Positions 10,245 to 27,763 are shown, counted from the stretch's first letter. The stretch: 64,000 bases of DNA from an uncultured Acidobacteriota bacterium (GCA_902825985.1 CADEDC010000002.1:23226-87225); one strand, 5' to 3'. Notes: generated by a model not told the origin, from the sequence alone. Translations and numbers: made by a program.

Positions 10245-10625
10245 TCAGGGCGCGAGCAGGGCGCGGACGGTCTCGAGAAAGCGCTTCGTCGTGAACGGCT
10301 TGCCGATGAACTGCGCGGCGGCGACCGCGTCGTGCGCCAGACGGTCCAGCGACGGATCGCCGGACATCAGCAGGATCGCGAGGCCGGGATGGCCGGCGGC
10401 GAGTCGGCGAGCGAGTTCCGGGCCGCTCACGCCGGGCAGACACACGTCGCAGACGAGCAGGGCGACCGCCGACGTCTGCGTCTCGACGATCGACTCTGCC
10501 TCCTCCGCCGACGCCGCGGTCACCACGTCGTAGCCGTTGGTCTGCAGCACCCGTGCCAGCAGGTCGCGCACCGTCTGGTCGTCGTCGATCAGCAGGATCG
10601 TCATGACGGGGTGCGTCCCGCGCAT
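10245..10625 (-). CDS. Single-domain response regulator (CheY-like receiver)
   Basis: 126 aa. ILLIDDDQTVRD...LLVCDVCLPGVSG...LLMSG...GKP. The true start may instead be the Met at 10604 (MTILLIDDD). Confidence 0.85.
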   Translation of the reverse strand: MRGTHPVMTILLIDDDQTVRDLLARVLQTNGYDVVTAASAEEAESIVETQTSAVALLVCDVCLPGVSGPELARRLAAGHPGLAILLMSGDPSLDRLAHDAVAAAQFIGKPFTTKRFLETVRALLAP

Positions 10626-10656
10626 CGCCCCTGGAGCAGCCTGGACAACGGCCGCC

Positions 10657-11106
10657 CTATTGCGGGCGCAGTAAGGTCACGATGACCGGCTCTTCGTCGG
10701 ATTCGAAGGCCTGTCGGGCGACGACCTGCGTTCCCGACATCCGCACATGGTAATCGCGCCCCTCGATCACGGTCGGCAGCGACAGGTAACAACCATCATC
10801 CGAGAACAGGGCCTTGAGGTTGCCTCCGATCATGTTCGCGAGCTCGCCGACGGCATCCTGGACGTCCTGCGGATTGTCGTCCTCCTCTTCGAGACCGAAC
10901 ATGACCTGGGCGGCGCGTCGTGCAGCCGTGCGCGAGCACTGGAAGACCAGGGTGCCGGTCCAGCGTCCCGTGATGTGCACGTGCCCCTCGATCGTGCCGC
11001 CGGTCGGCGCCGGCGGCACCGCCGGGCTCGGGTGTAACGGCAGTCCGAGCGTCTGCGACCACACCGCCTCGCTCAACTCCGTGACGTAGCGTTCCATCTC
11101 TTCCAT
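10657..11106 (-). CDS. cheX: CheX-type CheY-P phosphatase (CheC/CheX/FliY family)
   Basis: 149 aa. Carries the CXY active-site motif D-x3-E-x2-N (DAVGELAN) followed by ...LSLP. Sits inside the che operon. Confidence 0.8.
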   Translation of the reverse strand: MEEMERYVTELSEAVWSQTLGLPLHPSPAVPPAPTGGTIEGHVHITGRWTGTLVFQCSRTAARRAAQVMFGLEEEDDNPQDVQDAVGELANMIGGNLKALFSDDGCYLSLPTVIEGRDYHVRMSGTQVVARQAFESDEEPVIVTLLRPQ

Positions 11107-11120: not shown

Positions 11121-11948
11121 TTACGTCCTGGTCCCGGTCCCGGTTGGCAGATAGCAGCCGGCGCGATTCACCGGCATGCGCACGTACCGTTCGTCGAGAT
11201 TCATCGTCGATTCGGCAGCGCCCAGGAACAGATAGCCGTCGGGACGCAGCAGGTCGTAGATCTTGCCGAGGATGCGCTGCTTGGCCGCCACGTCGAAGTA
11301 GATCATCACGTTGCGGATGAACACGATGTCGCACTGCGGGATGCGCGACCAGGCGCCGTTCAGGTTCATCTCGTGGAAGGTCACCATCGATCGGATGTCG
11401 TCCTTCAGCTGCCACTCGAGTCCCTGCTTGTCGAAATAGCGGAGCAACAGCTTCGCCGGCATGCCGCGGTTGACCTCGAGCTGCGAGTAGCGGCCGGCGC
11501 GCGCCCGGTCCAGCGCCTTTCGGCAGATGTCGGTGGCGACCTGCTCGATCCGCCAGTCCTTGAGCTCGGGGAAGTGTTCGCGGAGGAGGATTGAGACCGA
11601 GTACGGCTCCTGCCCGGTCGAACTGGCGGCATACCAGATGGTCAGCCGCTTCGACAGCCGCCGGGCGTTGATCAACTTCGGCAGCAGGTCGGTGCGCAGC
11701 AGCTCGAACGGATCGATGTCGCGGAAGAACGTCGTCTCGTTCGTGGTCATCGCGTCGACGACCTTGCGGTGCAGCTCGGTCTGCCGGCTGCCCCGCAGCG
11801 TCTGCACGAGTGCGTCGATGGAGGCCAGGCCTTCACTGCGCACGATGGGTGCGAGCCGCGACTCGACGAGGTATTCCTTGCCGGCTTCGATGACGATGCC
11901 CGCTTCGTTCCGAACGAATTCGCGGACGAATTCGAATGAGGTGTCCAT
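11121..11948 (-). CDS. cheR: Chemotaxis protein methyltransferase CheR
   Basis: 275 aa. TNETTFFRD, IWYAASSTGQEPYS and IFIRNVMIYFD are canonical CheR motifs. Confidence 0.95.
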   Translation of the reverse strand: MDTSFEFVREFVRNEAGIVIEAGKEYLVESRLAPIVRSEGLASIDALVQTLRGSRQTELHRKVVDAMTTNETTFFRDIDPFELLRTDLLPKLINARRLSKRLTIWYAASSTGQEPYSVSILLREHFPELKDWRIEQVATDICRKALDRARAGRYSQLEVNRGMPAKLLLRYFDKQGLEWQLKDDIRSMVTFHEMNLNGAWSRIPQCDIVFIRNVMIYFDVAAKQRILGKIYDLLRPDGYLFLGAAESTMNLDERYVRMPVNRAGCYLPTGTGTRT

Positions 11949-11963: not shown

Positions 11964-13103
11964 TTATCGCGCAACGCCCGCAGGCGATCCTGCGGGGCGT
12001 GCGCACCTGCGCATCAACTCGGTGGCGATGTCGGAGAGTGGCAGCACGCGCTCCGCGAGTCCGGCGCGGGCAACGAAGCCCGGCATCCCCCAGACGACGC
12101 TCGAGGCTTCGTCCTGGACGATCACCCGCCCGCCCGCCGCCCGGATGTCTTCGGCACCGCGCAGGCCGTCCTGGCCCATCCCGGTGAGGACCACGGCGAG
12201 CGCCCGGGCGCCGTAGATCTGGCTGACCGATCGGAACAGCGGATCGACGGCCGGCCGGCACGAGTTCTCGGGCGGCTGCTGGTTCAGGGCCGTGACGATC
12301 TGCGTGCCGCGCCGCTGCAACACGAGATGGTGGTTGCCGGGCGCGACGTAGACGACGCCGGGCGCCAGCACTTCGCCGCCGGCCGCCTCGACGACGGTCA
12401 GGGCCGACTGCGCGTTCAGGCGTTCGGCCAGCAGCCGCGTGAACATCGGCGGCATGTGCTGTACGAGCACGATCGGAACCGCCAGCGTGGCGGCCAGTTG
12501 CGGCAGCACCACCGCGAGGGCGTTCGGCCCGCCGGTCGAAACGCCGATGGCGATGATCTCGACGGATTGGCTGCCGGCGGGCGGCGGACCGGCGGCGGCG
12601 TCTCGCCTGACGACGGCAGACGGCGGCGGCACCGGCCGCACCGTGGCGGACGGGCGCGCCGCATCGGTGGCAGGCGACGGGCTGGTGCCCAGAACGCCAC
12701 GACACAGCGCCTTCACCTTCGGGATCAGCTCCTCGCGGATCCGCTGCTGCGCGAGCGCGACGCTGCCGACGTTCGCCGGCTTGGTGACGTAGTCCGAGGC
12801 GCCGAGCGACAGCGCCTCGAGCGTCTCGGCGGCGCCGCGTTCGGTCAGCGTGCTGAACATGATGACCGGCAGGTTCGGATGGGTCTGCCGGAGCGCGCGC
12901 AGCGTCTCGAGGCCGTTCAACTCCGGCATCTCGACATCGAGCGTCACGACGTCGGGGTTGACCTGAGTGAGCTTCTGCAGGCCGATGCGGCCATTCGCGG
13001 CCGTGCCGACGACCTCGATGTCGGGGTCCTCCGACAGGACGTCGCTGACCATGCGACGGACGACCACGGCGTCGTCGACGACCAGAGCACGAATCTTCTT
13101 CAT
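11964..13103 (-). CDS. cheB: Chemotaxis response regulator protein-glutamate methylesterase CheB
   Basis: 379 aa. N-terminal receiver (ALVVDDAVVVRR...VTLDVEMPELNG), a Pro/Ala linker, and an esterase domain (IAIGVSTGGP, VQHMPP, TGMGQDG). Confidence 0.95.
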   Translation of the reverse strand: MKKIRALVVDDAVVVRRMVSDVLSEDPDIEVVGTAANGRIGLQKLTQVNPDVVTLDVEMPELNGLETLRALRQTHPNLPVIMFSTLTERGAAETLEALSLGASDYVTKPANVGSVALAQQRIREELIPKVKALCRGVLGTSPSPATDAARPSATVRPVPPPSAVVRRDAAAGPPPAGSQSVEIIAIGVSTGGPNALAVVLPQLAATLAVPIVLVQHMPPMFTRLLAERLNAQSALTVVEAAGGEVLAPGVVYVAPGNHHLVLQRRGTQIVTALNQQPPENSCRPAVDPLFRSVSQIYGARALAVVLTGMGQDGLRGAEDIRAAGGRVIVQDEASSVVWGMPGFVARAGLAERVLPLSDIATELMRRCARPAGSPAGVAR

Positions 13104-13134: not shown

Positions 13135-13500
13135 TCAGAATCCGAGGAGCCTGAGCTTGTCGGCGATCACGTCCTTCGTGAATGGCTTCATCACGTACTC
13201 GTTGGCGCCGGCGTCGAGAGCGCGCTGCATGTGTGCCATCTCGGTTTCCGTGGTCACCATCATCAGCCGGACGTCGGCGAGCGCCGCCTCGCGGCGGACC
13301 GCCTCGACCATCTCGATGCCGGTCATTTCCGGCATGTTCCAGTCCACGAGCGCCAGGCTGGTGTCAGGATGGCTCTGCAGGTAGGCGAGCCCCTCCTTGC
13401 CGTGCTGCGCCTGCGCGACTTCCGCGAACCCGTGCTCGCGCAGGGCCTGCGACAGGATCGACCGCATCGCGCGCGAATCATCGACAACCAGTGCCTTCAT
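13135..13500 (-). CDS. cheY: Chemotaxis response regulator CheY
   Basis: 121 aa. ALVVDDSRAMR...LVDWNMPEMTG...MVTTE...YVMKPF. Confidence 0.95.
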   Translation of the reverse strand: MKALVVDDSRAMRSILSQALREHGFAEVAQAQHGKEGLAYLQSHPDTSLALVDWNMPEMTGIEMVEAVRREAALADVRLMMVTTETEMAHMQRALDAGANEYVMKPFTKDVIADKLRLLGF

Positions 13501-13512: not shown

Positions 13513-14760
13513 TCAACCGTGAGTGCCGATCGGCGCTGTCGGCCCGCCCCGCCGCCCGCCGGCCCATTCCCGCAACTCGGCGGCGTGCCCCTTCAGCCAG
13601 CCGCCCGTCCACTTCCCGATCAGCCGCTCGACATCGTCCTCGGCGCCGGGATAGCCACGCGCGACCAGGTCGGCCGCCAGTCCGCGCCGGGCGGCGGCGC
13701 CGCCGGCGAACAGCGTCTGCAACAACCCTTCAATCGGCCGCTGCGCCATCCACTGGTGCCAGTCGGCCATCTCCTGGTCGACGAGCCGCAGCACGGCGGG
13801 CACCGCACGCTCACGGCGGGACAGGGCCTCGTCCTGTCGGGTGACCAGGTCGTCGACGGTCACGCAGGGCATGCCGGCCGGCGGCTCGATGTTGCGCGGC
13901 ACGCCGGCGTCGATCAGCAGCGGCTGCCGGCCCGCGAGGCCTTCACCCCGAACAATCGGCAGGCGGGCCGACGTCGCACAGACGACGACGTCCGCCCGCT
14001 GCAATGCCTCGTCCAACCGGTCCCACTCGCCGGTCGCCGCCCCGCACATCCGGGCCAGGGCCGCCGCCCGCTCGCCGGTCCGATTCACTACCGTCAGCGT
14101 GCCGATGCGCCGTTTCGTGATCTGCCGGGCAATGTCGCGCGCCGTGGCGCCGGCGCCGACGAGCAGCGTCGCCGGGCTGCCGCTGACCCGCTCGTGGATG
14201 ACGGTCGCAATCACGGCGCCGAGGCTCGCCTCGCCGCGGCCGATGTCGGTCGTCCGGCGCGCCCGGTGCCCGATCTTGAACGCCTGCTGGAACGACCGGC
14301 TGAGCACGGCGCCGAGCGTGCCGGCGGCGCTGGCCAGCTGCAGGGCCTCCTTCATCTGGCGGACGATGAATCCGTCGCCGAGGATGAGCGAGGCGGTGCC
14401 GGTGGCCACCCGGAACAGGTGGCGTACGGCGTCGTCGTCGATCGCCCGCCGCAGCCGGCACTGCGGCGAGTGCGGTCCGACACCCGGCCGATCCGCCCTG
14501 ACGACGTCCAGTACCGCATCGGCGGCGGCAAGGCTGCCGACGACGTAGAACTCGGTGCGATTGCAGGTGGAGACGATCGCCGCCTCCTGGAGGCCCGGGA
14601 TCCAGCGCGCCCGCTCGAGCAGTCCGCGCGCCTGGGACGCGTCGTAGCTGAGGCGCTCGCGCTCGGCGAGCGACGCCCACGAATAGTCGACGCCGAACAG
14701 GACGACATGCGCGTCCGGTCCGGCGAGCGGGCCGCGAACCGATGGGGAGAGGTGCACCAC
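13513..14760 (-). CDS. hemA: Glutamyl-tRNA reductase (heme/tetrapyrrole biosynthesis), embedded in the che operon
   Basis: 415 aa with a GTG start. Catalytic-Cys motif STCNRTEFY, NADPH-binding LLVGAGATARDIA, and the N-terminal pattern ERERLS typical of HemA. Lies 12 nt upstream of cheY and 50 nt downstream of the globin-MCP gene. Confidence 0.85.
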   Translation of the reverse strand: MVHLSPSVRGPLAGPDAHVVLFGVDYSWASLAERERLSYDASQARGLLERARWIPGLQEAAIVSTCNRTEFYVVGSLAAADAVLDVVRADRPGVGPHSPQCRLRRAIDDDAVRHLFRVATGTASLILGDGFIVRQMKEALQLASAAGTLGAVLSRSFQQAFKIGHRARRTTDIGRGEASLGAVIATVIHERVSGSPATLLVGAGATARDIARQITKRRIGTLTVVNRTGERAAALARMCGAATGEWDRLDEALQRADVVVCATSARLPIVRGEGLAGRQPLLIDAGVPRNIEPPAGMPCVTVDDLVTRQDEALSRRERAVPAVLRLVDQEMADWHQWMAQRPIEGLLQTLFAGGAAARRGLAADLVARGYPGAEDDVERLIGKWTGGWLKGHAAELREWAGGRRGGPTAPIGTHG

Positions 14761-14810: not shown

Positions 14811-17420
14811 TTAGTAGGTGAACCGGGCGATGAGCGACTGCAGCTCGTTCGCCATCTTGGACAGCTGGGCCGCGGCCTTCTGCGTGTCGTTCGCGCCGTC
14901 GGTGGTGCTGCGCGCCGCCTGCGCCACGCCGGTGATGTTCTGGGCGATCTCGGAACTGCCCTTTGCCGCTTCGGTGACGTTGCGGCCGATCTCGTTGGTG
15001 GTCGCGGTCTGTTCCTCCACCGCGCTCGCGATGGTGTTCGAGATGTCGTTGATCTGGTTGATGATGGCGCTGATCTGGCCAATCGCCTCGACGGCGCCCT
15101 TCGTGTCGGTCTGAATCGCCTCGATCTTCTGGCTGATGTCCTCGGTCGCCTTGGCCGTCTCCTTGGCCAGTTCCTTGACCTCGTTGGCGACGACCGCGAA
15201 CCCCTTGCCGGCTTCGCCGGCGCGGGCCGCCTCGATCGTGGCGTTCAGCGCCAGCAGGTTCGTCTGCTGCGCGATGGAGGTGATCACCTTGATGACCTTG
15301 CCAATCTCGGCCGAGCTCTCGCCCAGTTTGGCAACCGTGCTATTGGTGCTCTCGGCCACCTTGACCGCCGCGGTCGCGACCTTCGCCGCTTCGTTCGCGT
15401 TCTTGGCGATCTCCTTGATGGAGGCGCTCATCTCCTCGGTCCCGGTGGCGACCGTCTGGACGTTCTTGCTGACCTCCTCCGAAGCAGCCGACACGACGTT
15501 GGCCTGGGCCGACGTCTCTTCGGCATTGGCGCCCATCTGCGTGCTGACGGCCGACAGCTCTTCGGACGAGCTCGCGAGGGCGTTGGCGTTCTCGCCAATC
15601 GCCGAGATGCTGCGGCGCAGGTCCGTCAGGAAGGTCCCCAGGCCGGTCGCCATCTGGCCGACGGCATCGTCGCCGCTGATCGTCATCGTCTGCGTCAGGT
15701 CACCCTTGGTCGCGGCGTTGACGACGCCGAGGATGGCGTCGACCTTGCGCTTCAGCTCGGCCGTCGCCTGGCGTTCACGCTCGGCGGCGTCGGCGACCTG
15801 ATGCTCCTGCTCCATCTTGGCGCGCACCTTGTCCGTGATGTCGACGGCGTACTTGGCGACCTTGTAGGGACGTCCGTTCGCATCGAGCACCGGATTGTAC
15901 GAGGCCTGGATCCACACCTCGCGTCCGCCCTTGCCGAGGCGCTTGTAGTCGGCGGCCTGGAACTCGCCGCGGTTCAGCGCCGCCCAGAAGTCGCGGTACT
16001 CGCTGCTCGTCTTGTACGACGGCTCGACGAACATGCTGTGGTGCTGCCCCTTGATTTCGTCGAGCGTGTAGCCGAGGGTCTTGCAGAAGTTCTCGTTCGC
16101 GTAGTTGATGGTACCGTCCATCGTGAACTCGATGACCGCCTGCGTCCGGCTGATCGCCGCCAGCTGCGCGGTGAAGTCGGCGTTGGTCGCCTCCAGGCGC
16201 AGCGTCTCGGTGACGACGTCCCAGTTGACCATGCCGCCCATGTAGGTGCCCTGGTCGTCATAGGTGGCCGACACGAGCAGGCTCAGCACCTCAGGCCCGA
16301 CCTTGATGTTGGCCTGGTGCGGCAGGTCCTTCGGGTCGCCGAGCAGGCGGCGCTGGTGCGACGGGTTCTTGTGGAAGACATCGATGGTCTGGCCGATCAT
16401 GTCGTCGACCTTGACCGGCAGGTACTGCTCCAGCGTCTTCAGGGTCTTCTTCGACGCCGGATTCATGTACTGAATCTTGAGATCGAGGTCGGCGAACATG
16501 ATGTTGCTCGGCGAATTCTCGGTCATCGACGTCACGCGCGCCATCTCGGTGCGCTGCCGCCGTTCGGCGGTGATGTCCGTCCAGTTGACGATGTAGCCGA
16601 GCAGCTGGCGCTGGCCGTCCTGAATCGCGTTGATGTGGGTGCGCAGCGTCACCTTGCCGAACGAGAACTCGGCGTCCCGCGGCAGCGTGCCGGGCGTCCG
16701 CAGGATCTTCTCGATGCGCGCCGGGTCGCGATGGAAGCGGTGGATGGAGCCGCCCAGCAGGTCGGCGACCGACACCCCGAACGCCTTCTTGATCTCGTCG
16801 GCGAATCCCGACGCCGTCTGCGCCGCCATCGGGTTGAGGTAGACGAGGTTCAGGTCCGTATCCGCAATGAACACGTTGGCCCGCAGCGAGTCGAGCGAGG
16901 CGCGCATGCCCTCGAGACTCTCCGTGATGACCGGTTCCTCGACCGCGGGCTGCGTCTGCGCCACGGCCACCTTCAAGCGACCATTCGACATGCCAATCTC
17001 CTTCTTCGAGCGGTGTCCGCCGGCAGGTGCCGGCGACACGGTGACGATATCGCCGGCCAGCGGGGCGACGGCCGCAATGACTTCGTTGACAATCGATCTC
17101 GGCACGCGCAGCTCGGCGAGCGCCGCCGCCAGGTGCCCGGCGGTGCGATCGAACTGCGCCCGGGTGATGCGCATGCCGGCGTGGGCGGACTTCATGTCCT
17201 TCCCCTTGTAGACACCGGGGCCGCCGAGGGCGGTGATGAAGAAGGCGTTCTGTCGCGCCTTCAGGTGCGCCATGTTCGTCCTGGCGAAGAACGGCGCGAG
17301 CTCGCCGTCGGCGAGGACCTTCTGGTAGAAGAGATCGACGGCGGCCTTGATGGCCGGTACGCCGCCGACGCGTTCGAAAAGGGTTGCGGACTGAACCGCC
17401 GCCGCCGACTGTCTCGCCAT
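14811..17420 (-). CDS. Soluble chemoreceptor: truncated hemoglobin (group I-like) + 3 PAS + HAMP-like + MCP signalling domain
   Basis: 869 aa with no TM segment. The N-terminus [70 protein letters not shown] is a trHb fold signature (B10 Tyr, proximal His). Three PAS-like repeats follow ([45 protein letters not shown]). The C-terminal hairpin tip reads [37 protein letters not shown]. Confidence 0.9.
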
Positions 17421-17441: not shown

Positions 17442-17915
17442 TTAGGCCGCGTCGACGTGACGGGCGTTGATATCCACCGTTCGCTCCACATCCAGGATGA
17501 GCAGGAGCCGGGCGGGCAGCTTGTACACGCCGGTCACGAGGCCATCCACTTTCGTTCGCACGGTCTCGGGCGCCTGCTCGAACTGCGCCGCGTTCACCTC
17601 GACCACATCGTCGATTTCGTCCACCAGCAGACTGACGGCACCGTCCGGCGTCCGGACGACGACGTTCATCGGCAACTCGCCGTCGGGCCGCGGCGTCAGG
17701 CCGAGCCGGGAGCGGAGGTCGAGCGCGGTCACGATCTGGCCGCGCAGGTTGATGAGCCCGCGGACGACGGCCGGCGCCAGCGGCACCGGCGTCATCTCCT
17801 GATGGCGGATGACCTCCTGCACGCTCAGGACCGCGATGCCGAAGTAGAGGCCGTCGAGAAAGAAGGTCGCGTACTGCGCGGTGCCGGAGTCTGCGGCTGT
17901 GGTTGTGGTTGTCAT
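17442..17915 (-). CDS. cheW: Chemotaxis coupling protein CheW
   Basis: 157 aa. YATFFLDGLYFGIAVLSVQEV...VRGLINLRGQIV is the typical CheW domain. Confidence 0.95.
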   Translation of the reverse strand: MTTTTTAADSGTAQYATFFLDGLYFGIAVLSVQEVIRHQEMTPVPLAPAVVRGLINLRGQIVTALDLRSRLGLTPRPDGELPMNVVVRTPDGAVSLLVDEIDDVVEVNAAQFEQAPETVRTKVDGLVTGVYKLPARLLLILDVERTVDINARHVDAA

Positions 17916-17931: not shown

Positions 17932-20181
17932 TTACGCCGCTGCCGGGGCGACCGCGGCCGGATCGGCGGCGGCGACGACCGCCGCCACGTCCACCAGATC
18001 GGTGACCCGCTGCTGCAGCACCACCGAACCGACGACGCCGGGCCGCGACACCCGCCGCTGCACGTCGATCCGCTCGCTGACGATGTCGAGAATCTGGCTC
18101 ACCACGAGACCGACGCTGCGGCCACCGTCGGCGTAGACGACGACCTGTCGCATGTCGGCGTCGTTGGTCGGGCGGCCCGCGAAGACCATGCCGAGGTCGA
18201 CGAGCGGCATGATCTCGCCGCGATACTGCACCACGTCCTGGTCACCCGAGCGTTCGATCGCCGAGACCGCGAATTCCTCGAGACGCGCCACCAGGTTGAG
18301 CGGGATCGCCATGCGGTCCTTCTCCCCCACCCGGCACACCAGGAGCGTCTGCAGGTCGTGCGCCGCATCGTCACGTACCTCGCTCGCGTCGCCGTCGTTC
18401 AGCCGGCGATCGCGGACCTCGGCGACGACCCGGGCCCGCTGGGCGATCCCGAGCACGTCGAGAATCAGTGCGACGCGGCCGTCGCCCATGATGGTGGCGC
18501 CGGCGAACGACTCGATCCCCTTCAGTTGCTTGCCGAGCGGCTTGACGACGATCTCCTCGGTGTCGTGGATCGCGTCGACGACCAACCCGAACTGCCGGTC
18601 GTCGGCTTTCAGCACGACGATGTTCACGACGTCGGCGTTGGTGCCGGCACCCGGGCGGTGGAAGGCTTCGTCGAGATGGACGAGCGGCAGCAGGTTGCCG
18701 CGCAAGCGGTAGAACGGCGCGCCCTGGATCCGCTCGATGCCGGCGCGCGCCTGCGTCCCTTCCAGCCGCACGAGTTCCAGCAGGCTGACCTGCGGAATCG
18801 CGTAGCGCTCGCCGTCGCCGCCGGCCACCATCAGCGCCGGGATGATCGCGAGGGTGAGCGGGATCTTGATCTTGAGCGTCGTCCCTTCGCCCATCTTGCT
18901 CTGGATGTCGACCTGTCCGCCGATCTTCTCGATGTTGGTCTTGACGACATCCATGCCGACGCCGCGGCCCGAGATGTTGGAGATCTTCTCGGCGGTCGAG
19001 AAGCCCGGCAGGAACACCAGACGCAGCACCTCGTGGTCGGACATGCGGCTCGCCTGGTCGGCCGAGATGAGGCCGCGCTGGGTCGCCTTGGTGCGCAACC
19101 GCGCCGGGTCGATGCCGGCACCGTCGTCGGAGATCTCGATATTGATCTGACCGCCTTCGTGGAAGGCGCGCAGGCGGATCAGCCCTTCCGCCGGCTTGCC
19201 GCGGAGCATCCGTGCCTCGGGCGACTCGACGCCGTGATCGACCGAGTTGCGGACGACGTGGGTCAGCGGATCCTTGATCGCCTCGATGATCGTCTTGTCG
19301 AGCTCCGTCTCCTTCCCCTCCATCTCGATGCGCACCTGCTTCTGGCAGAGCACGGCGAGGTCACGGACGATGCGCGGGAACTTGCTCCAGACGTTGCCGA
19401 TCGGCTGCATGCGTGTCTTCATCACGCCTTCCTGCAGCTCGGAGGTCACCAGGTTCAGCCGCTGCGTCGCGCCGACGAAGCTGTTGTCGGTCTGTGTCGC
19501 GGTGAACTGGAGGATCTGGTTGCGCGCCAGCACCAGTTCGCCGACCAGGTTCATCAGCTTGTCGAGCAGCACGACGTCGATGCGCAGCGACGAGTCGGCG
19601 GCGGCCCCGCGCCGGTCGTCCCCGGTGCGGCGGTCCTCGCCGGTCCGACGTTCGTCGGACGCGTCGTGCGCCGGCGCCGCCGGCTCGGCGTCCGCCGTCG
19701 CCGCGACGGGCGCGGCGGCATCGGCGGACGACGCAACCGCCGCCGGTGCAGCGGTCGCGTCGGCGGGGGCCCGCGGCGCAGACGTCGGCGGCTTGGCGAG
19801 CCCGCCCTCGTTGAGGCGCTTCAGCTCGGCGACCAATGCCCCGTAGTCACCGTCGCCCTCGACGCCTGTCTGCTCGACCTGCGCCAGGATCTGGCGGATG
19901 GCGTCCACCATGGCGAGCAGTCCGGTCGTGATCTCGGCGTTGAGCAGCAACTCGCCGTCGCGCATCTTCGACAGCAGGCTCTCACCCACGTGACTGATCG
20001 CTTCGAGCTTGTTGAAGGCGAGGAAGCCACAGGTGCCTTTGATGGTGTGGATGGTCCGGAACACGCTCGCGAGCGTGTCCGCGTTCCGCGGATCTTTTTC
20101 GAGGTCGACGAGCTCTTTGTCGAGCCGATCGAGGTTCTCGTAGCTCTCGATCAGGAACTCTTTGACCAGGTCTTCACTCAT
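17932..20181 (-). CDS. cheA: Chemotaxis histidine kinase CheA
   Basis: 749 aa. P1 Hpt (FRTIHTIKGTCGFL), a P/A-rich linker, dimerisation and HATPase regions (HVVRNSVDHG, DDGAGID, GRGVGMDVV), and a C-terminal CheW-like P5 domain. Confidence 0.95.
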   Translation of the reverse strand: MSEDLVKEFLIESYENLDRLDKELVDLEKDPRNADTLASVFRTIHTIKGTCGFLAFNKLEAISHVGESLLSKMRDGELLLNAEITTGLLAMVDAIRQILAQVEQTGVEGDGDYGALVAELKRLNEGGLAKPPTSAPRAPADATAAPAAVASSADAAAPVAATADAEPAAPAHDASDERRTGEDRRTGDDRRGAAADSSLRIDVVLLDKLMNLVGELVLARNQILQFTATQTDNSFVGATQRLNLVTSELQEGVMKTRMQPIGNVWSKFPRIVRDLAVLCQKQVRIEMEGKETELDKTIIEAIKDPLTHVVRNSVDHGVESPEARMLRGKPAEGLIRLRAFHEGGQINIEISDDGAGIDPARLRTKATQRGLISADQASRMSDHEVLRLVFLPGFSTAEKISNISGRGVGMDVVKTNIEKIGGQVDIQSKMGEGTTLKIKIPLTLAIIPALMVAGGDGERYAIPQVSLLELVRLEGTQARAGIERIQGAPFYRLRGNLLPLVHLDEAFHRPGAGTNADVVNIVVLKADDRQFGLVVDAIHDTEEIVVKPLGKQLKGIESFAGATIMGDGRVALILDVLGIAQRARVVAEVRDRRLNDGDASEVRDDAAHDLQTLLVCRVGEKDRMAIPLNLVARLEEFAVSAIERSGDQDVVQYRGEIMPLVDLGMVFAGRPTNDADMRQVVVYADGGRSVGLVVSQILDIVSERIDVQRRVSRPGVVGSVVLQQRVTDLVDVAAVVAAADPAAVAPAAA

Positions 20182-20462: not shown

Positions 20463-21785
20463 TCAAGCGACGGCGTCCTGCGATCTGGCCGTTCCGGCCA
20501 CGTCGGCACTGTCCCCGAGGAGGTCGCTGACCTCGCACGACATGACGATGTCGGCGCTCAACGGCGATACCTTGAGCTTGACGACCATGCCGTCGTCGGC
20601 CAGCCGGTCGGCATCCCAGACCGCCGGCTCGCTCTCGAGCTGCGGCAGTGAGCAGTCACTGGTCACCGCCCGCTCGTCGAGATGGGCGTGCATGCGGCCG
20701 CTGACCAGATTGGCGAGCTCAGCGGCCGTCGACAGGTAGTCCTCGACGACGACGTCGGCCGCTTCCATGCCCAGCATGCGGGCGGCGATCGCGGTCATCG
20801 ACGGCACCGTCGCGCGGATCCCGAGCTTCACGACGTAGCGGTTCTGGATGGTGATGTCGGAGATCGCCGCGATCATCGGCGCCGCCTCGGCGGCCTGTTC
20901 GAGCGGCTCGATCTCGGCGTCGAGCATCATGCCGAACACCTGCCGCGCGGCGCTGGTCACGCCCTGCGCGAGGTCGCCGGTCAGGCTGGTCACGGCGGCC
21001 AGCGGGCCCGGCACCCGCGTGAAACGCCGCAGCTCGGTCTTGAACTTCGCCGGGATGTACGAGCGGAGCATCACGTCGTCGAACAGCGCACCGCGCGGCT
21101 CGCCGGCGTCGGACGGATCGACGATGCCGACGATGCGGACCGGCTGCGACCCGGCCATGGCGCGCAGCTTCGGGACCAGCAGGTCGGCGCCCAGGATGCC
21201 GAGCTCCGAGCCGAGGAAGACGAGGCGGACCGGCGACTGCCGGAAGTGGGCCAGCGCCGCGGCGCCGGACCCGACCTCCATGATCGGTCCCTGCGTCGAA
21301 CCCTGGCTGACGAAGAAGTGGCGGTAGTCCAGACTGCCGTCGACGAGCAGCGCCGGCATGTCGGGACCCAGGCGGATCGACTGCACGTTGCCGTTGCGGA
21401 CCGACTTGCTCCGCGTCGACAGGTTGCTGCGCAGGCGCTCGAGCGCCGCCAGCACCTTCTCGGTGCGCGGCGGCTTGAGGATGTAGCCCTCGATGCCGAG
21501 GCGGACCAGGCGCACGACGATGTCCTCGCGGCGCTCCTTGGAGAGCATGAGCACCGGCAGCGTCTTCAGACGCGACGAGGAACGGATCGCCTCGAGCACC
21601 TCGACGCCGTCGATGAGCGGCATCTCGACGTCGAGGACGATGAGGTCGGCCTCCTCCTCGTCGAGCCGGCGCAGGGCCTCGACGCCGTCGACGCACTCGG
21701 CCGTCGTGCAGCCGAGGTTCTGTGTCAGCAGCCGCTTGATGACGAAGCGTGTCGACGCATCGTCGTCGCAGATCAGCACGTGCAT
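20463..21785 (-). CDS. Response regulator fusion: REC + degenerate REC-like middle domain + C-terminal CheX-like phosphatase domain
   Basis: 440 aa. N-terminal receiver (VLICDDDASTRF...LIVLDVEMPLIDG...MLSK...LKP). The middle region resembles a receiver (PALLVDGSLDYRH...LVFLGSELG) but lacks an obvious acidic pocket. The C-terminus carries the CXY motif S-x3-E-x2-N (STAAELAN) followed by ...SLP. Confidence 0.8.
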   Translation of the reverse strand: MHVLICDDDASTRFVIKRLLTQNLGCTTAECVDGVEALRRLDEEEADLIVLDVEMPLIDGVEVLEAIRSSSRLKTLPVLMLSKERREDIVVRLVRLGIEGYILKPPRTEKVLAALERLRSNLSTRSKSVRNGNVQSIRLGPDMPALLVDGSLDYRHFFVSQGSTQGPIMEVGSGAAALAHFRQSPVRLVFLGSELGILGADLLVPKLRAMAGSQPVRIVGIVDPSDAGEPRGALFDDVMLRSYIPAKFKTELRRFTRVPGPLAAVTSLTGDLAQGVTSAARQVFGMMLDAEIEPLEQAAEAAPMIAAISDITIQNRYVVKLGIRATVPSMTAIAARMLGMEAADVVVEDYLSTAAELANLVSGRMHAHLDERAVTSDCSLPQLESEPAVWDADRLADDGMVVKLKVSPLSADIVMSCEVSDLLGDSADVAGTARSQDAVA

Positions 21786-21794: not shown

Positions 21795-22469
21795 CTATCG
21801 ACTCTCAGTCCGTGGATCCAGCGTGCCGTCGAGCTGCGGCCGGACGTAGCGATCGAAGCACTGCGGGCAGAAGCCGTGCGAGAACTTCACGTCGGTGTGA
21901 TGGCTGACGTACTCCTCGAGCGTCTGCCAGCTGTCACGATCGTCCCGGATGCGGCGGCAGTAGCTGCAGGTCGGCAGCAGGCTGCGCAGCTGGCGCACCT
22001 CGGCCAGCGCGGTTTCGAGCTGGAGCGCGCGCTGCACCAGGCGGTCGCGCAGGTCGACGGTCCGCAGGCCGACGCTCACACGCGCCCGCAGTTCGGCGGC
22101 GTTGGTCGGCTTGACCAGGTAGTCGTCGGCACCGGCGTCGAGCCCGGCGACGATGTCGGCTGCCTCGTTCCGGACGGTCACGAGGATGATGTAGGGTGCC
22201 AGCTGCGCGTCGCGGCTGCGCACCTGTTGACAGAGCTCGAGACCGCTCAGGTCCGGCATCATCCAGTCCACGAGTGCGACCCGCGGCCCGTCGTCCGCCG
22301 CCAGCGCCGCCAGCGCCCGGGTGCCGCAATCGACGGTCACCGCCTCCCACCCGGAGCGCTTGAGCACCGCGGCCAGCGCCGATCTCGTCGTCGCATCGTC
22401 ATCGGCGATGAGCACGCTGGCGGGGCGCGCCGTCGCGGCCGCGGCCGCCCGCGGTGTCATGGCTGGCAT
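21795..22469 (-). CDS. Response regulator with C-terminal coiled-coil and 4-Cys module (LPxCxxC..IRDD..W..FSHGxCPxC)
   Basis: Trimmed from ORF 21795..22634; start at 22469 (MPAMTP), or at 22460 as an ATGA overlap with the Hpt stop. Receiver VLIADDDATTR...ALVDWMMPDLSG...KP. C-terminus LLPTCSYCRRIRDDRDSWQTLEEYVSHHTDVKFSHGFCPQCF. Confidence 0.8.
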   Translation of the reverse strand: MPAMTPRAAAAATARPASVLIADDDATTRSALAAVLKRSGWEAVTVDCGTRALAALAADDGPRVALVDWMMPDLSGLELCQQVRSRDAQLAPYIILVTVRNEAADIVAGLDAGADDYLVKPTNAAELRARVSVGLRTVDLRDRLVQRALQLETALAEVRQLRSLLPTCSYCRRIRDDRDSWQTLEEYVSHHTDVKFSHGFCPQCFDRYVRPQLDGTLDPRTESR

Positions 22470-22855
22470 CCCGGTCCGCCGGCGGATGACGGGTGCCGGC
22501 TGATCGTCCGCACCCACGCCGCGAGCTCGGTCAACAGCGCATCGGCGGTCACCCGGAAGTCGGGCCGCAGGGCGGCGACCCGCCGGGCGTCGCCGCCGCG
22601 CGCCCCGAGCTCGAGCGCCTCGGTGACGCCGCACAACCGGAGCGCGCAGACGTTGCCCACCGCCCCCTTGATCGTGTGGGCGACACGGGCCACCTGGGCG
22701 AGGTCGCCGGCCTCCGCCGCCTGCTCGAGGCTGTGGACGTAGCGTGGCAGATCGGCCTGGACGAGGCCGATGAGTTCCTGAATCGCCTCGAGGTCGTTGT
22801 CATACCAGCGACACACCTCCTCGGGGTCAAACGCCAGTTGGCTGTCTTCCGTCAT
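22457..22855 (-). CDS. Histidine phosphotransfer (Hpt) protein
   Basis: Trimmed from ORF 22457..22963; the start ATG at 22855 overlaps the upstream kinase stop (ATGA). 132 aa with the Hpt motif VAHTIKGAVGNVCA. Confidence 0.8.
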   Translation of the reverse strand: MTEDSQLAFDPEEVCRWYDNDLEAIQELIGLVQADLPRYVHSLEQAAEAGDLAQVARVAHTIKGAVGNVCALRLCGVTEALELGARGGDARRVAALRPDFRVTADALLTELAAWVRTISRHPSSAGGPGCQP

Positions 22856-25680
22856 GCTGCGCCCTCCTGCGCCGCCGTCGACCCGATGCGTGCCAAGGCG
22901 GTCGCCAGCGCCTCGGACTGCAACGGCTTGGACAGATAGTCCGACATGCCGGCGTCGAGGCATTTTTCACGGTCCCCGCGCATGGCATGGGCCGTCATCG
23001 CGATAATCGGCAGTTGGCGGCAATCCGGGAGCAGCCGAATCCGCCGGGTTGCCTCGTAGCCGTCCATCTTCGGCATCTGGCAGTCCATGAACACCGCGTC
23101 GTAGCGGTGTGTCCCGACCCGGGCGAGCGCCTCCTCGCCGTTCTCGACGATCTCGACGCTGCACCCGAGCTTCTCGAGAAAGCGGCGCGCGACCTTCTGG
23201 TTGATCGTGTTGTCCTCGGCGACGAGGACGTGCAGGCCGGCGACGAGCGGCGCGGCGGCGCCGGCAGACTCGACGGCGACCCTGGCGCGGGCCGCCTCGA
23301 CGAGGGGCAGCTCGAACCAGAACGTCGAGCCTTCGCCGACCGTGCTGAACACGCCGATCTCGCCGCCCATCAGCTCGACCAGCTGCCGGCAGATCGTCAG
23401 GCCGAGGCCGCTGCCGCCGTACTTGCGGGTTGTCGAGCTGTCGGCCTGCGTGAACTTCTCGAAGATGGCGTCGAGCTTCTCGGCGGCGATCCCGATTCCC
23501 TGATCGGCGACGGCAAACCGCAGGCGCGGCCGTTCGCCGGCGGGCGTCAGCGCGCTGACGGCAATCGACACCATGCCCTGATGGGTGAACTTGATGGCGT
23601 TGTCGGCCAGGTTGATGAGCACCTGGCGGATCCGCGTCGGGTCGCTGATGATGCTGGACGGCACGTCCGACGCGACGTTCATCACCAGCGCCAGCCCCTT
23701 CTTCTGCGCCTTGACGGTGACCGGCTCGAGCGCCGACGTCAGCTCCTTGCGCAGCTCGAACGACACCGGGTCGATGGTCAGCTTGCCGGCCTCGATCTTC
23801 GACAGGTCGAGCACGTCGTTGACGATGGTCAGCAACGCCTCGGCCGACGAGCGGATGCCCTCGCTGAGGTCACGCTGCTCGCCGCTGAGCGGTGTATCGA
23901 GGAGCAACGTCGTGAGGCCGATGACGCCGTTGATCGGCGTCCGCACCTCGTGGCTCATGTTGGCGACGAACTCGGATTTCAGCCGCGACGCCGCGAGCGC
24001 CTCCTGGCCGGCGCGGACCAGCGCATCCGACAGTTCACGCTGCTCCGTGATGTCGCGCAAGGTGCCCGACGTGCCGGTGCCGCGCCCGTCGTCGGTCATG
24101 CGGGCGTGCACCTCGATCCAGCGCACCGCACTCCCGCGGGTGCGGCAGCGGACTTCGTAGCGCGACAGCGCCTTGTCGCGCCGCAGCAGCGGCAGGAACC
24201 GCTTCTCGTGCAGGTCGCGGTCGTCCTCGTGCACGAAGTCGATGATGTTCCGGCCGAGGCTGTCGTCCGGATCGAAGCCGGTGATTTCGGTCCACGCCGG
24301 ATTGAGGTAGGTCCAGCGGCCGTCCTGATCGGTCTCGAACAGCACGTCCTGCAGGCTCTCGACGACGCGGCGGAAGCGCTGCTCGCTGGCCAGGATCGAC
24401 TGTTCGTCGCGCAGCCGTTCCGAGATGTCACGGGCGATCAGCGCGTAGAACTCGACGCTGCCCTGGTAGCCGACCTGCGCCAGCACCAGCCGCGACACCG
24501 GCGTCAGCGTGCCGTCGCGATGCTGGATGTGGGTTTCGCACTGGCTGGTGCCGCCGTTGTCGCGCGCCCGCTCCAGCGCCTCGCGGAACTCGCGCGCCTG
24601 GCCGTCGCTGCCGAGCAGCGCCTCGAGCGGCGTGCCGAGCACCGGCGTGTTCACCGCCAGCCCGCACATCGTGCGGGCCGCCCGATTCATGTAGGTCGGC
24701 AGGCCGTCCCGGTCGAAGAACGCGACGAAATCGGGCGAGCTGTCGAGCACGCGGGCCATCCGGCGGTTCACGCCCTCGATGCGGACGCGGTCGGAGATGT
24801 CGATCCCGTGCGCCATGACCAGCGGGCCATCGGGCGACTCGAAGACGAAGTTCTGATAGGCGAGCGCGATGCGGCGCCCGCCGGGGCCCTGGAGGGTGAG
24901 CAGCCCCTGGAAGTGGCCGTTCTGTTCGGCGAGCTGCAGGTAGCGCTCGTAGCCCTCCCAGTACTCGGGCGGCACGAACTCGCGGAGATTCGCGCCGAGC
25001 ATGTCGGCCCGCGCGCGACCGAGCGCCCGGCAGCCGGCGCCGTTGATCATGCGGATGGTGCCGTCGAGTTCGTGATAGAGAATGACGCCCTGCGCGTTCT
25101 CCACCAGCTCGCGGTAGTGCTGCTCGCTGCGCGCCAGCTCGCCGTGGGCCGCCGCGACGTCGTGCAGCTCCAGCCGCAGGCGAGCCGCCGCCTGTCGGAG
25201 ATCGATCTGCGACAGCACCTGCCGCGCCAGCCGCTGCAGCGCGTCCAGCTGGTCGGCCGTCAGCCGGCGCGGGACCCGATCGATCACGCAGAGGGTGCCG
25301 AGCGCATGCCCGTCCACCCCGACCAGCGGCACCCCGGCGTAGGCGCGGATGTGCGGCTCGCCGGTCACCAGCGGATTGTCGGCGAAGCGCGGGTCCAGCC
25401 GGGCATCCTCGACCAACATCGGGACATCCGGCGTGAGGATCGCGTGCGAACAGAAGGCGACGTCCGGCGGTGCCCCGGCCGCCGCCAGGCCGTGCGACGA
25501 CTGGCACCACTGGCGGTCCGCGCCGACCAGGCTGATCAGGGCGATCGGCGCGCCACAGATCTGGGCGGCCAGACGGGTGAGGTCGTCGAACGCCGGTTCG
25601 GGCGGCGTGTCGAGGATGCCGAGGCGGCGCAGTGCCGCCAGCCGTTCGGGCTCGCCGGTCGTCGTGGCGGGCGGGATCAT
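22852..25680 (-). CDS. GAF-PAS-PAS-PAS hybrid sensor histidine kinase with C-terminal receiver
   Basis: 942 aa. N-terminal GAF-like region (LGILDTPPEPAFDDLTRLAAQICGAPIALISL). PAS repeats. H-box FVANMSHEVRTPINGVIG. HATPase motifs (DNAIKFT, DQGIGI, GGSGLGL). Receiver (VLVAEDNTINQKV...VFMDCQMPKMDG...KP). Confidence 0.9.
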   Translation of the reverse strand: MIPPATTTGEPERLAALRRLGILDTPPEPAFDDLTRLAAQICGAPIALISLVGADRQWCQSSHGLAAAGAPPDVAFCSHAILTPDVPMLVEDARLDPRFADNPLVTGEPHIRAYAGVPLVGVDGHALGTLCVIDRVPRRLTADQLDALQRLARQVLSQIDLRQAAARLRLELHDVAAAHGELARSEQHYRELVENAQGVILYHELDGTIRMINGAGCRALGRARADMLGANLREFVPPEYWEGYERYLQLAEQNGHFQGLLTLQGPGGRRIALAYQNFVFESPDGPLVMAHGIDISDRVRIEGVNRRMARVLDSSPDFVAFFDRDGLPTYMNRAARTMCGLAVNTPVLGTPLEALLGSDGQAREFREALERARDNGGTSQCETHIQHRDGTLTPVSRLVLAQVGYQGSVEFYALIARDISERLRDEQSILASEQRFRRVVESLQDVLFETDQDGRWTYLNPAWTEITGFDPDDSLGRNIIDFVHEDDRDLHEKRFLPLLRRDKALSRYEVRCRTRGSAVRWIEVHARMTDDGRGTGTSGTLRDITEQRELSDALVRAGQEALAASRLKSEFVANMSHEVRTPINGVIGLTTLLLDTPLSGEQRDLSEGIRSSAEALLTIVNDVLDLSKIEAGKLTIDPVSFELRKELTSALEPVTVKAQKKGLALVMNVASDVPSSIISDPTRIRQVLINLADNAIKFTHQGMVSIAVSALTPAGERPRLRFAVADQGIGIAAEKLDAIFEKFTQADSSTTRKYGGSGLGLTICRQLVELMGGEIGVFSTVGEGSTFWFELPLVEAARARVAVESAGAAAPLVAGLHVLVAEDNTINQKVARRFLEKLGCSVEIVENGEEALARVGTHRYDAVFMDCQMPKMDGYEATRRIRLLPDCRQLPIIAMTAHAMRGDREKCLDAGMSDYLSKPLQSEALATALARIGSTAAQEGAA

Positions 25681-26873: not shown

Positions 26874-26881
26874 GCCAGTCC

Positions 26882-27763
26882 TCAGTGCTCGGTGCCGGTC
26901 TTCGTCGCCGTGACCGCCGCCGGATCCGGCTCGCGCCGGTTGACACTCGAGTCGGACACCGGCGCGTTCAGCGCGCCCTCGATCTGCCGGCTCGCTTCGC
27001 TGCGGACGACGATGGAGACGCGGCGATTGCGCGGATCGAGCGGCACGTCGGGCATCTGCAGCTGGCGGTCGGCGAAGCCGCGGACCGCCCGCACCTGACC
27101 GTCGCGCAGTCCGGTCCGCTCCATCACCCGCCGGGCGGCGTTCGCCCGCTCCGCCGAGAGTTCCCAGTTGCCGTAGCGATCGCCGTCGGCATACTGCCGG
27201 CTGTCGGTGTGGCCTTCCACGACGACGTCATTGGTCAGCGCGCCCAGCTCGTGGGCGATCAGTCCGAGGATCTGCTCGCTCTCGCCGCGCAGCGCGGCGC
27301 TGCCGGAATCGAAGAAGCTGGACGCGGCCTTGTCGACCAGATCGATGCGCAGCCCTTCGGAGGTCACGGTGAACTGCACCTGGTCGCGCAGCGTGTCGAA
27401 ACCCTTGATGGCGGTCATTTCCTGGCGGATGAGCGCCGCCGTCGCCTCGAGCCGGGCCCGTTCGTCCTCGGCCGCGGTCCGGGCGGCCGAGACTTCGGGC
27501 GCCGCACCCGGTTCGACGCCCGGCTGGCCGCCTGGCAGCACCCCCTTGCCCTTCTCGAACTCGAAGATGCCGGGATCGCGGAAGTAGCCGCCGACCGCCG
27601 ACTTCACCTCCTTGCTTTGCGTGACCAGCCACATCACGAGGAAGAACGCCATCATGGCGGTCACGAAATCGGCATAGGCCACCTTCCAGGCGCCGCCGTG
27701 ATGGCCGCCATGGCCGCCCTTCTTGCGGACGATGACGATCGTTTCGCCTTCCTTGCCGCTCAT
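26882..27763 (-). CDS. motB: Flagellar stator protein MotB (set 1)
   Basis: Trimmed from ORF 26882..27922; the ATG at 27763 overlaps the motA stop (ATGA). 293 aa. WKVAYADFVTAMMAFFLVMWL holds the TM segment and the conserved Asp. OmpA-like C-terminus (VVEGHTD...NWELSAERANAARR...NRRV). Confidence 0.9.
   Translation of the reverse strand: MSGKEGETIVIVRKKGGHGGHHGGAWKVAYADFVTAMMAFFLVMWLVTQSKEVKSAVGGYFRDPGIFEFEKGKGVLPGGQPGVEPGAAPEVSAARTAAEDERARLEATAALIRQEMTAIKGFDTLRDQVQFTVTSEGLRIDLVDKAASSFFDSGSAALRGESEQILGLIAHELGALTNDVVVEGHTDSRQYADGDRYGNWELSAERANAARRVMERTGLRDGQVRAVRGFADRQLQMPDVPLDPRNRRVSIVVRSEASRQIEGALNAPVSDSSVNRREPDPAAVTATKTGTEH

Follow-up and report, generated by a model that had tools for sequence, protein, structure and literature searches.

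In 64,000 nucleotides of DNA from an uncultured Acidobacteriota bacterium (GCA_902825985.1 CADEDC010000002.1:23226-87225; this whole stretch is called the window below), one gene of the minus strand, at positions 14811 to 17420, encodes a soluble chemoreceptor with a group I truncated hemoglobin (trHb), or trHbN, at its N terminus. This receptor is better described as a heme-based soluble chemoreceptor of the Aer2 lineage to which a trHbN has been added than as an analogue of HemAT, since its first two PAS domains are of the Aer2 heme type and the third resembles PAS domains that bind flavin adenine dinucleotide (FAD). The tether that joins the globin to the first PAS domain is predicted to be disordered and carries a conserved ribosome-binding site (RBS) with an in-frame ATG, from which the same gene probably produces a second, globin-less receptor. 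The gene and its parts are as follows (positions in the window, strand, description, and evidence).

14811..17420 (-), complete receptor gene, 869 aa, 93.1 kDa, stop codon at 14811-14813 (open reading frame listing, Pfam, identical public protein)
17037..17390 (-), group I trHb domain, aa 11-128 (Pfam, alignment to HbN, model confidence, fold superposition)
16917..17036 (-), tether between trHb and PAS1, aa 129-168, low-complexity and predicted to be disordered
16998..17003 (-), exact Shine-Dalgarno (SD) hexamer AAGGAG in the tether, read in frame as Lys-Lys-Glu, 6 nt before an ATG
16989..16991 (-), that in-frame ATG (Met144), candidate start of a trHb-less form of 726 aa (78.2 kDa) beginning MSNGRLK
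16545..16916 (-), PAS1, aa 169-292, Aer2-type (residue hallmarks, predicted local distance difference test [pLDDT] 78-90)
16191..16544 (-), PAS2, aa 293-410, Aer2-type heme PAS (PDB sequence matches, Foldseek, hallmark residues)
15813..16166 (-), PAS3, aa 419-536, PAS_3/PAS_9 type (Pfam PAS_4, PAS_9, and PAS_3; PDB sequence matches)
15606..15755 (-), tentative HAMP-like segment, about aa 556-605 (sub-threshold Pfam match)
14814..15605 (-), methyl-accepting chemotaxis protein (MCP) kinase-control hairpin, aa 606-869 (Pfam MCPsignal, lengths, motifs)

The gene is a single uninterrupted open reading frame that opens with an ATG. Its third-position GC content (GC3) of 0.92 equals that of the flanking che genes, and a protein identical to the receptor is present in a public collection (P0001). 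Pfam searches and an AlphaFold model built from 29 homologs gave the domain order trHbN-PAS1-PAS2-PAS3-HAMP-like segment-MCP hairpin. This bears out the layout (Bac_globin, three PAS, and MCPsignal in Pfam terms) that an earlier note had read from the DNA alone, and the globin motifs quoted there, including KSAHAGM, are found in the protein. The same note had taken the receptor to be soluble and devoid of transmembrane helices, in agreement with a Kyte-Doolittle scan (19-residue window), whose maximum of 1.70 falls at aa 110-128, the globin H helix, and is the sole window above 1.6. A hidden membrane anchor was thus ruled out, the only hydrophobic peak being this helix.

The N-terminal domain proved to be a group I trHb and not a sensor globin, as had been proposed in the earlier note. 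Residues 13-125 match Bac_globin (PF01152) with 78.5 bits (E=6.2e-22; cutoff 21) over profile positions 1-119 of 121; the sensor-globin model Protoglobin (PF11563) reached 17.0 bits against a cutoff of 25 and covered 42 residues only. The closest PDB sequence was Mycobacterium tuberculosis HbN (1idr, E=3.2e-28), aligned without a gap over 116 residues at 44% identity, and the 20 top PDB matches were all group I trHbs (E 3e-28 to 1.6e-13). Group II-type trHbs of Geobacillus and Thermobifida and M. tuberculosis HbO followed at E 7e-7 to 7e-3 (HbO about 6e-3). The globin part of the model is confident (pLDDT 83-93), and in Foldseek it superposed on HbN (1s56/1idr) with a template modeling (TM) score of 0.90 and a root mean square deviation (rmsd) of 0.7 Å and on the trHbs of Tetrahymena and Paramecium with TM scores of 0.96-0.97. 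The profile comparison, the PDB matches, and the 2-on-2 model thus agree with one another, and a HemAT-type sensor-globin identity is ruled out by the sub-threshold Protoglobin score together with the 2-on-2 fold.

The predicted heme pocket consists of Tyr32 (B10), Phe45 (CD1), Leu53 (E7), Gln57 (E11), Phe60/61 (E14/E15), His80 (F8), and Thr93 (G8), and Gly-Gly motifs lie at G19-G20 and G66-G67. The proximal His and the B10 Tyr, whose absence would have spoken against a trHb, are therefore both in place. HbN has the same pocket residues at the same alignment positions (B10, CD1, E7, E11, E14/E15, and F8), the sole difference being G8, which is Thr here and Val in HbN. Tryptophan at G8 is typical of groups II and III, and the domain here and its relatives have Thr or Val. 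Among the 120 best homologs of the receptor, ranked by similarity to it, 55 carry an N-terminal trHb; these 55 proteins provided 56 fused trHb domains for comparison, every one of which has Tyr B10, Phe CD1, Gln E11, His F8, and the two Gly-Gly motifs. Leu E7 is present in 55 of the domains, and Val occupies G8 in 49. Such invariance indicates that the domain is under the selection expected for a working heme pocket, and judged by these residues the trHbN almost certainly binds heme. HbN itself combines nanomolar O2 affinity and slow O2 release with fast nitric oxide (NO) dioxygenation.

Three PAS-like repeats had been noticed behind the globin. There are indeed three PAS domains (Pfam positions about aa 176-289, 295-405, and 427-532), but they are not generic: two are Aer2-type heme PAS domains and one is similar to FAD-binding PAS domains. 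The hallmarks of Aer2 PAS domains include an E-eta His that serves as heme ligand, an I-beta Trp that bonds O2, an H-beta Leu, and a C-terminal DxT motif (PMC10107281). In PAS2 the E-eta His is His350, the H-beta Leu is Leu381, and the I-beta Trp is Trp400, and Thr404 is present as well. The best PDB matches of this domain were the heme-binding PAS domains of Pseudomonas aeruginosa Aer2 (3vol, E=1.3e-15; 4hi4, E=6.1e-15) and Vibrio cholerae Aer2 (6ceq, E=1.8e-15), with which it has the sequence motif in common, and its model reached TM scores of 0.78-0.83 in Foldseek. PAS1 has His230 (E-eta), Trp280 (I-beta), and D282-x-T284, with Thr instead of Leu at H-beta, and its F229, H230, and W280 are invariant in 29 sequences. 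Across the homolog set, 204 Aer2-type PAS domains could be counted, with the E-eta His in 202, the I-beta Trp in 202, and the H-beta Leu in 180. By these hallmark residues, PAS1 and PAS2 are Aer2-type heme PAS domains. The nearest PDB sequences to PAS3 are those of MmoS (3ewk, E=1.4e-13) and Aer (8dik, E=5.5e-10), both FAD-binding PAS domains, with LOV domains next. PAS3 is therefore probably a flavin-type PAS domain, its putative cofactor being a lead and not a result.

The C-terminal third of the protein had been read as a HAMP-like segment followed by a full MCP hairpin. The hairpin stands: MCPsignal (PF00015) matches aa 673-837 with E=4.8e-34, the tip motif EAARAGE lies at aa 730, the arms measure about 126-135 aa, and methylation-like sites are found at aa 658 and 798. 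The hairpin, its conserved tip, and the CheA, CheW, CheR, and CheB proteins encoded alongside place the receptor among the MCPs. The HAMP part is weak, Pfam HAMP matching aa 560-602 with 15.4 bits, below its 25-bit cutoff. Judged from length alone, the hairpin is suggested to be roughly of the 36H class. The C terminus reads ...SLIARFTY and lacks the xWxxF pentapeptide. The NCBIfam equivalog model for Aer2 (NF041847) scored 287.6 bits, failing its cutoff of 1200, with the best stretch at aa 169-405.

In the AlphaFold model, aa 129-166 of the tether have pLDDT values of 26-47 and no secondary structure, and in the 55 homologs the corresponding segments are 15-100 aa long (median 44), rich in A, S, G, T, E, K, and P, and not alignable except for one motif, [KR][KG]E-x-x-M-[SA]-N-G-R-[FL]-K. 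At the DNA level this motif reads AAGGAG ATTGGC ATG, that is, a perfect SD sequence with a 6-nt spacer before Met144, and a synonymous change of this site from AAGAAGGAG to AAAAAAGAA would still encode KKE. The annotated start is preceded only by GAAGGA, 13 nt upstream, so that within the window it is the internal site that better fits the SD consensus, in sequence as well as in spacing. Homologs that lack the trHb start at the corresponding point, with MANGRLK (P0094, P0103), MSNGRVK (P0023), or MANGRFN (P0014).

AAGGAG followed after 6-9 nt by an in-frame ATG was found in the tether of 18 of 29 fused genes, namely, those of the window and of loci L001, L002, L005-L007, L009, L011, L013, L014, L016, L017, L020-L023, L028, and L030; most of them (14) have a 6-nt spacer, three an 8-nt spacer, and one a 9-nt spacer. 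The same 29 genes contain 526 other in-frame Met codons, and this arrangement precedes not one of them. The hexamer occurs in differing codon phases (KKE, KGE, KGV, KGD), indicating that conservation acts at the nucleotide level, and hexamer, spacing, and ATG persist across lineages with no more than 43-50% identity between their trHb domains. Since a perfect RBS and ATG are kept exactly where trHb-less relatives start, the most economical reading of the sequences is that the tether motif is probably a functional internal translation start, yielding a 78-kDa form beside the 93-kDa full-length receptor. A precedent is found in the CheA-L/CheA-S pair of Escherichia coli, where an in-frame internal RBS and ATG in a chemotaxis gene likewise give a product without its N-terminal module; CheA-S is experimentally established, whereas the start proposed here is deduced from conservation.

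Some observations weigh against an internal start. The motif is absent from 11 of the 29 fused genes, including all three from cultured Alcanivorax strains, showing that two isoforms are not essential to the design, and several of the 18 positive genes are closely related (for example, four from Nitrospirales), so that the independent lineages number nearer 10. The SD/ATG could also be a relic of the gene fusion or a translational pause site. In that case only the full-length receptor would be made, and the motif would be either a fossil or an SD-like pause aiding the folding or heme loading of the globin, which we consider unlikely, though the strongest of the alternatives. The motif does sit exactly where the ancestral intergenic region and start codon would be expected, and the 11 genes without it have kept the fusion. 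Furthermore, in a rough neighbor-joining tree of the trHb domains (118 columns, no support values), the fused domains of Alcanivorax and of planctomycetes fall outside the main fused cluster, among free trHbNs (Nocardia, Amycolatopsis), which hints at more than one fusion event, some of them possibly young. A fossil is nonetheless hard to reconcile with a hexamer, spacing, and ATG that outlast such divergence of the globin while the rest of the tether has become unalignable, and the shifting codon phases point to selection on an RNA signal. As for a pause site, it would need no in-frame ATG at 6-9 nt. That the internal SD in the window is better than that of the annotated start also speaks against both readings. 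A functional internal start thus remains the reading that we prefer.

The relatives of the receptor bear on what the globin does. All 120 best homologs are soluble poly-PAS MCPs in which Aer2-type and PAS_3-type domains are mixed, 3 to 9 per protein; the closest, 84% identical, comes from a metagenome-assembled genome (MAG) of Vicinamibacterales, and the host of the window is inferred to be a flagellated, Vicinamibacterales-like acidobacterium. We also scanned one genome per species with an alignment of 9 closely related trHb sequences, which gave 44 loci, labeled by local phmmer searches; a profile of such close sequences under-samples distant fused families. About 30 of these loci have trHb-PASn-MCP genes in the same operon, in MAGs labeled Vicinamibacterales, Acidobacteriales/Acidobacteriaceae, Bryobacteraceae, Nitrospirales (complete chromosomes too), Deltaproteobacteria, and Opitutus, as well as in the three cultured Alcanivorax strains. 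With 55 of 120 homologs and about 30 of 44 loci, the trHb-PAS-MCP architecture is not rare; it is common among uncultured bacteria of soil and freshwater, in several phyla. trHb and Aer2-type PAS domains occur together in 53 of the 55 trHb proteins, and Aer2-type PAS domains are present in 25 of the 65 trHb-less ones, which fits a role of the globin in serving the PAS hemes.

The family also shows other arrangements. P0025 (1171 aa, from a JGI metagenome) has tandem trHbs at aa 11-124 and 129-243, then five PAS domains and an MCP hairpin. In two planctomycete contigs, of Singulisphaera and of a Planctomycetia MAG (L025 2-1252 (+) and L026 1-777 (+), both cut at the 5' end), the MCP hairpin is followed by an approximately 12-aa linker and a C-terminal trHbN, apparently a second, independent trHb-MCP topology. 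The C-terminal variants and the tandem copy imply that the exact geometry is not conserved. Close homologs without trHb, such as P0002, P0007, P0008, P0011, P0016, P0017, P0027, and others, have 8-9 tandem PAS_3-type domains and reach 1,500 aa, and the PAS-type composition is heavily reshuffled within the receptor family. A survey of architectures with the trHb domain as the only query returned just 26 short or standalone trHbs and did not inform on other output domains. L033 9776-12841 (+), from an Eremiobacteraceae MAG, was considered as an unfused ancestral state and ruled out, because its single in-frame stop codon interrupts the globin H helix (…LTAALKSL*VDEATC…), which marks the gene as a pseudogene or the product of an assembly error.

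The receptor gene belongs to an apparent che operon, all on the minus strand with short gaps, in the order REC-CheX, CheA, CheW, receptor, glutamyl-tRNA reductase (GluTR), CheY, CheB, CheR, and CheX.

20463..21785 (-), REC-CheX fusion, first gene of the apparent operon, its CheX-like part weak (Pfam)
17932..20181 (-), cheA (Hpt, dimerization, and HATPase domains, two CheW-like stretches)
17442..17915 (-), cheW (Pfam CheW E=1.6e-31), its stop 21 nt before the receptor ATG
13513..14760 (-), GluTR/HemA gene, 415 aa, starting 50 bp past the receptor stop and ending 12 bp before cheY
13135-13500 (-), cheY (Pfam)
11964-13103 (-), cheB (Pfam)
11121-11948 (-), cheR (Pfam)
10657-11106 (-), cheX (Pfam)

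The layout CheA-CheW-receptor-...-CheY-CheB-CheR-CheX is conserved in about 30 loci, and REC-CheX also lies 5' of cheA in L001, L004, L007, and L009 and upstream in L011 and L012. The GluTR contains the Pfam GlutR_N and NADP-binding domains, GlutR_dimer gave no match in the window copy, and the protein passes the NCBIfam hemA model TIGR01035 narrowly (224.7 bits versus 209.55). It matches PDB 1gpj with E=4.5e-35, its catalytic STCNR aligning to the active site. A compositional oddity of this gene was looked for and discarded, its GC3 of 0.90 being like that of its neighbors. A GluTR gene directly follows the receptor in 8 further loci, of Vicinamibacterales/Luteitalea type (L002, L004, L006, L010, L011), Opitutus (L018), and Bryobacteraceae (L021, L024); these copies are 35-44% identical to that of the window, and all have kept TCNR. 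Genes for ABC1/UbiB-type kinases recur near the trHb-MCP operon in L001 (11630-13027 (-)), L003, L008, L013, L015, L016, and L018, in L013 possibly fused with it.

On the basis of this analysis, we consider it somewhat better than an even bet that the receptor is an Aer2-like transducer of O2 or other gases in which the trHbN is a loosely tethered accessory heme module. The protein would be a cytoplasmic, multi-cofactor aerotaxis or energy-taxis transducer. PAS1 and PAS2 would bind O2 or another diatomic gas at their b-type hemes, with the E-eta His holding the heme and the I-beta Trp stabilizing the ligand. The signal would pass through the PAS-PAS connecting helix, which the model places at aa 284-301, to PAS3 (probably flavin/redox-dependent), then to the HAMP-like segment and the MCP hairpin, which would control the CheA and CheW encoded just upstream, with CheR and CheB providing adaptation. 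Through local NO dioxygenation, O2 buffering, or ligand-dependent, reversible docking, the trHbN would condition the response of the PAS hemes to gas or extend it, and the range could reach down to very low O2. The 93-kDa form with the globin and the 78-kDa form without it could co-assemble in receptor arrays, and the GluTR of the operon may raise the supply of heme precursor for a receptor that would need up to three hemes per subunit. That the trHb acts by proximity is suggested by the variable and disordered tether, by homologs without a trHb and a probable isoform without it, and by the C-terminal variants and the tandem copy; a disordered tether of variable length also makes a rigid relay of the HemAT kind less likely.

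Several points count against this proposal. The HAMP match is below threshold, and the hairpin class was judged from length alone. The co-occurrence of trHb and heme PAS is biased, because the homologs were ranked by their similarity to the query and share ancestry. A disordered tether is compatible with signaling by docking as well; in Aer, the PAS domain acts on HAMP laterally. It may simply be that the cell has no hemA other than this GluTR copy. The sequences and the model show the identities of the domains, the conservation of their residues, the disorder of the tether, the conserved SD/ATG motif, and the structure of the operon; from these we infer heme and FAD binding, the ligand sensed and its specificity, the direction of signaling, isoform production, and the role of the trHb.

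An alternative that gives the globin the leading part is that the trHbN is the primary gas sensor, a 2-on-2 analogue of the HemAT globin, whose binding of O2 or NO or whose heme redox state alters its contact with PAS1 or HAMP and thereby drives kinase control, leaving the PAS hemes a secondary, modulating role. The pocket residues invariant in all 56 fused domains are what selected ligand binding would produce, and the trHb is N-terminal, the usual input position, in nearly all members. N-terminal heme domains also modulate signaling in multi-PAS Aer2 receptors, so that layered inputs are plausible (PMC10107281). We nevertheless rate a primary-sensor role as rather unlikely, in view of a tether that is predicted to be disordered, varies between 15 and 100 aa, and has no conserved heptad register. 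Close homologs do without the trHb, the gene itself is apparently able to make a trHb-less form, and the planctomycete versions have the globin at the other end. Finally, kinetics of the HbN type (Tyr B10/Gln E11) are ill-suited to following gradients except near anoxia.

The accessory-module proposal can be taken one step further, to a gene that encodes two receptors: the conserved internal RBS would set the ratio of trHb-containing to trHb-less forms, the tethered HbN-like domain, acting as an NO dioxygenase or as an O2 site of ultra-high affinity, would protect the PAS-heme response or extend it, and the GluTR of the operon would supply heme. In this complete form the idea is tentative, and we would not expect all of its parts to hold.

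The motility genes of the region bear on the output. MotA, flagellin, and FliD are encoded in the window, which places the operon in a motility region of a flagellated organism. It is nonetheless conceivable, if improbable, that the operon, as do the F7-type Aer2/Che2 systems of Pseudomonas and Vibrio, responds to O2 or NO by controlling an output other than motility. According to the study of Vibrio vulnificus Aer2, systems with Aer2 in other bacteria have no direct effect on flagellar motility (PMC10107281). Extra response regulators, the REC-CheX protein, and the hybrid kinases, Hpt, and HD-GYP-like proteins encoded next to the operon would suit such an output, whereas motA, flagellin, and fliD in the same region speak for motility, and the single-domain CheY and CheX phosphatases are typical of flagellar control. 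Pfam searches of the operon genes revealed no CheD, no RsbU/RsbV-type protein, and no diguanylate cyclase output. That the globin is a degenerate remnant unable to bind heme is scarcely credible, since we found no point in its favor and it conflicts with a full-length Bac_globin match well above threshold, the pocket invariance in 56 domains, and a confident model within 0.7 Å rmsd of HbN.

Compared with the Aer2 receptors known so far (P. aeruginosa Aer2/McpB, V. cholerae Aer2, and the tri-PAS Aer2 of V. vulnificus), the receptor is likewise a soluble MCP whose PAS domains have heme hallmarks, those receptors having one to three PAS domains in series before HAMP and a kinase-control hairpin of about 36H. 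What sets the receptor of the window apart is the trHbN at its N terminus and a further PAS domain, the third, of the flavin type. It has a single, weak HAMP-like segment instead of poly- or di-HAMP units, has no xWxxF tail (EWEEF in V. vulnificus Aer2), and misses the equivalog cutoff, and its operon includes CheX and GluTR and, as far as seen, no CheD. With HemAT and the other globin-coupled sensors it shares an N-terminal heme globin on a soluble MCP with a presumed function in gas taxis. Those proteins, however, have a 3-on-3 sensor globin and a continuous helix leading to the coiled coil, in contrast to the 2-on-2 group I trHb, the disordered tether of about 40 aa, and the three PAS domains found here. 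From M. tuberculosis HbN, the trHb domain differs, apart from G8, in being covalently joined to a chemoreceptor.

The earlier note had known of no characterized trHb-MCP chimera. No experimental study of any trHb-MCP was found in a literature search, but the architecture itself had already been described in silico: Sharma, Parales & Singer reported Bac_globin+PAS+MCPsignal in Corallococcus coralloides Cc_4972 and six other complete genomes in 2018, and considered it rare, with 7 of 8,075 genomes (PMC6194562). That paper lists C. coralloides, Nitrospira defluvii, Phenylobacterium zucineum, and Glaciecola nitratireducens. The word 'truncated' does not occur in its text, which places the globin in no trHb group, and in the sections consulted the PAS domain is treated according to the FAD-binding Aer model and not as an Aer2-type heme PAS (PMC6194562). 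As described there, and compared with our receptor by description and not by sequence, Cc_4972 has the same Pfam architecture, is soluble, and is encoded between cheA-cheW and cheB-cheR. ABC1 kinase genes lie nearby, as in several loci related to the window, the C. coralloides cluster having ABC1 and ABM genes where the window has GluTR. A globin review of 2020 assigned the chimeric T globins of bacteria to no groups other than II and III and regarded those of bacterial group I as single-domain (PMC7475203). An aerotaxis review of July 2026 names HemAT-Bs, HemAT-Hs, GCS-Bh, and Atu1027 as the validated globin MCPs and cites only Sharma et al. 2018 for MCPs with both PAS and globin domains. In the searchable literature we found no prior report that the globin belongs to group I, that PAS domains of such receptors are of the Aer2 type, that the architecture is prevalent in several phyla, or that a C-terminal topology exists, and none of an internal start signal in a chemoreceptor gene or of a GluTR gene in a chemotaxis operon. 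For internal starts in chemoreceptor genes, the search brought up only an unrelated mycovirus paper and a 2026 review of bacterial N-terminal proteoforms. The 2017 census of multidomain trHbs by Hade et al. may also list trHb-PAS-MCP fusions.

The roles of bacterial group I trHbs are debated, NO detoxification being best supported, and these globins are usually treated as single-domain proteins. A trHbN placed on a chemoreceptor beside Aer2-type heme PAS domains offers a direct handle on trHbN in signaling and is relevant to the way in which Acidobacteriota, Nitrospirota, and Verrucomicrobiota of soil and freshwater orient themselves in gradients of O2 and NO. It also raises two testable ideas, namely, that isoforms control receptor composition and that cofactor supply is encoded in the chemotaxis operon. 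Should the extended proposal of two receptors, a tethered HbN-like site, and heme from the operon's own GluTR hold, there would be three firsts: a trHb with a signaling role, a chemoreceptor gene whose N-terminal isoforms are programmed, and a che operon that brings its own enzyme of cofactor synthesis. The receptors form a well-defined and widespread class that is not categorically new, and cultured carriers are available in the three Alcanivorax strains of the genome scan and in the others listed by Sharma et al. 2018.

Further signaling genes flank the operon in the window (22460-27227 (-), 28651-29772 (-), and 10248-10676 (-)). They encode an Hpt protein, a GAF-PAS-PAS-PAS-HK-REC hybrid kinase (HK, histidine kinase), a second HK-REC hybrid kinase, and an HD-GYP-like (HD_5) protein, with an extra single-domain response regulator downstream of cheX. 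Farther away lies a probable flagellin-glycosylation island, with genes for NeuB, a DegT aminotransferase, a PseB-like dehydratase, two MptE/Maf-like proteins, an ATP-grasp protein, a radical SAM protein, methyltransferases, and several glycosyltransferases. The flagellin and FliD genes lie beyond this island and the MotA gene nearer to the che operon, the segments 31034-55678 (-), 58937-59830 (+), 59933-61357 (+), and 27763-28647 (-) spanning the island, flagellin, FliD, and MotA.

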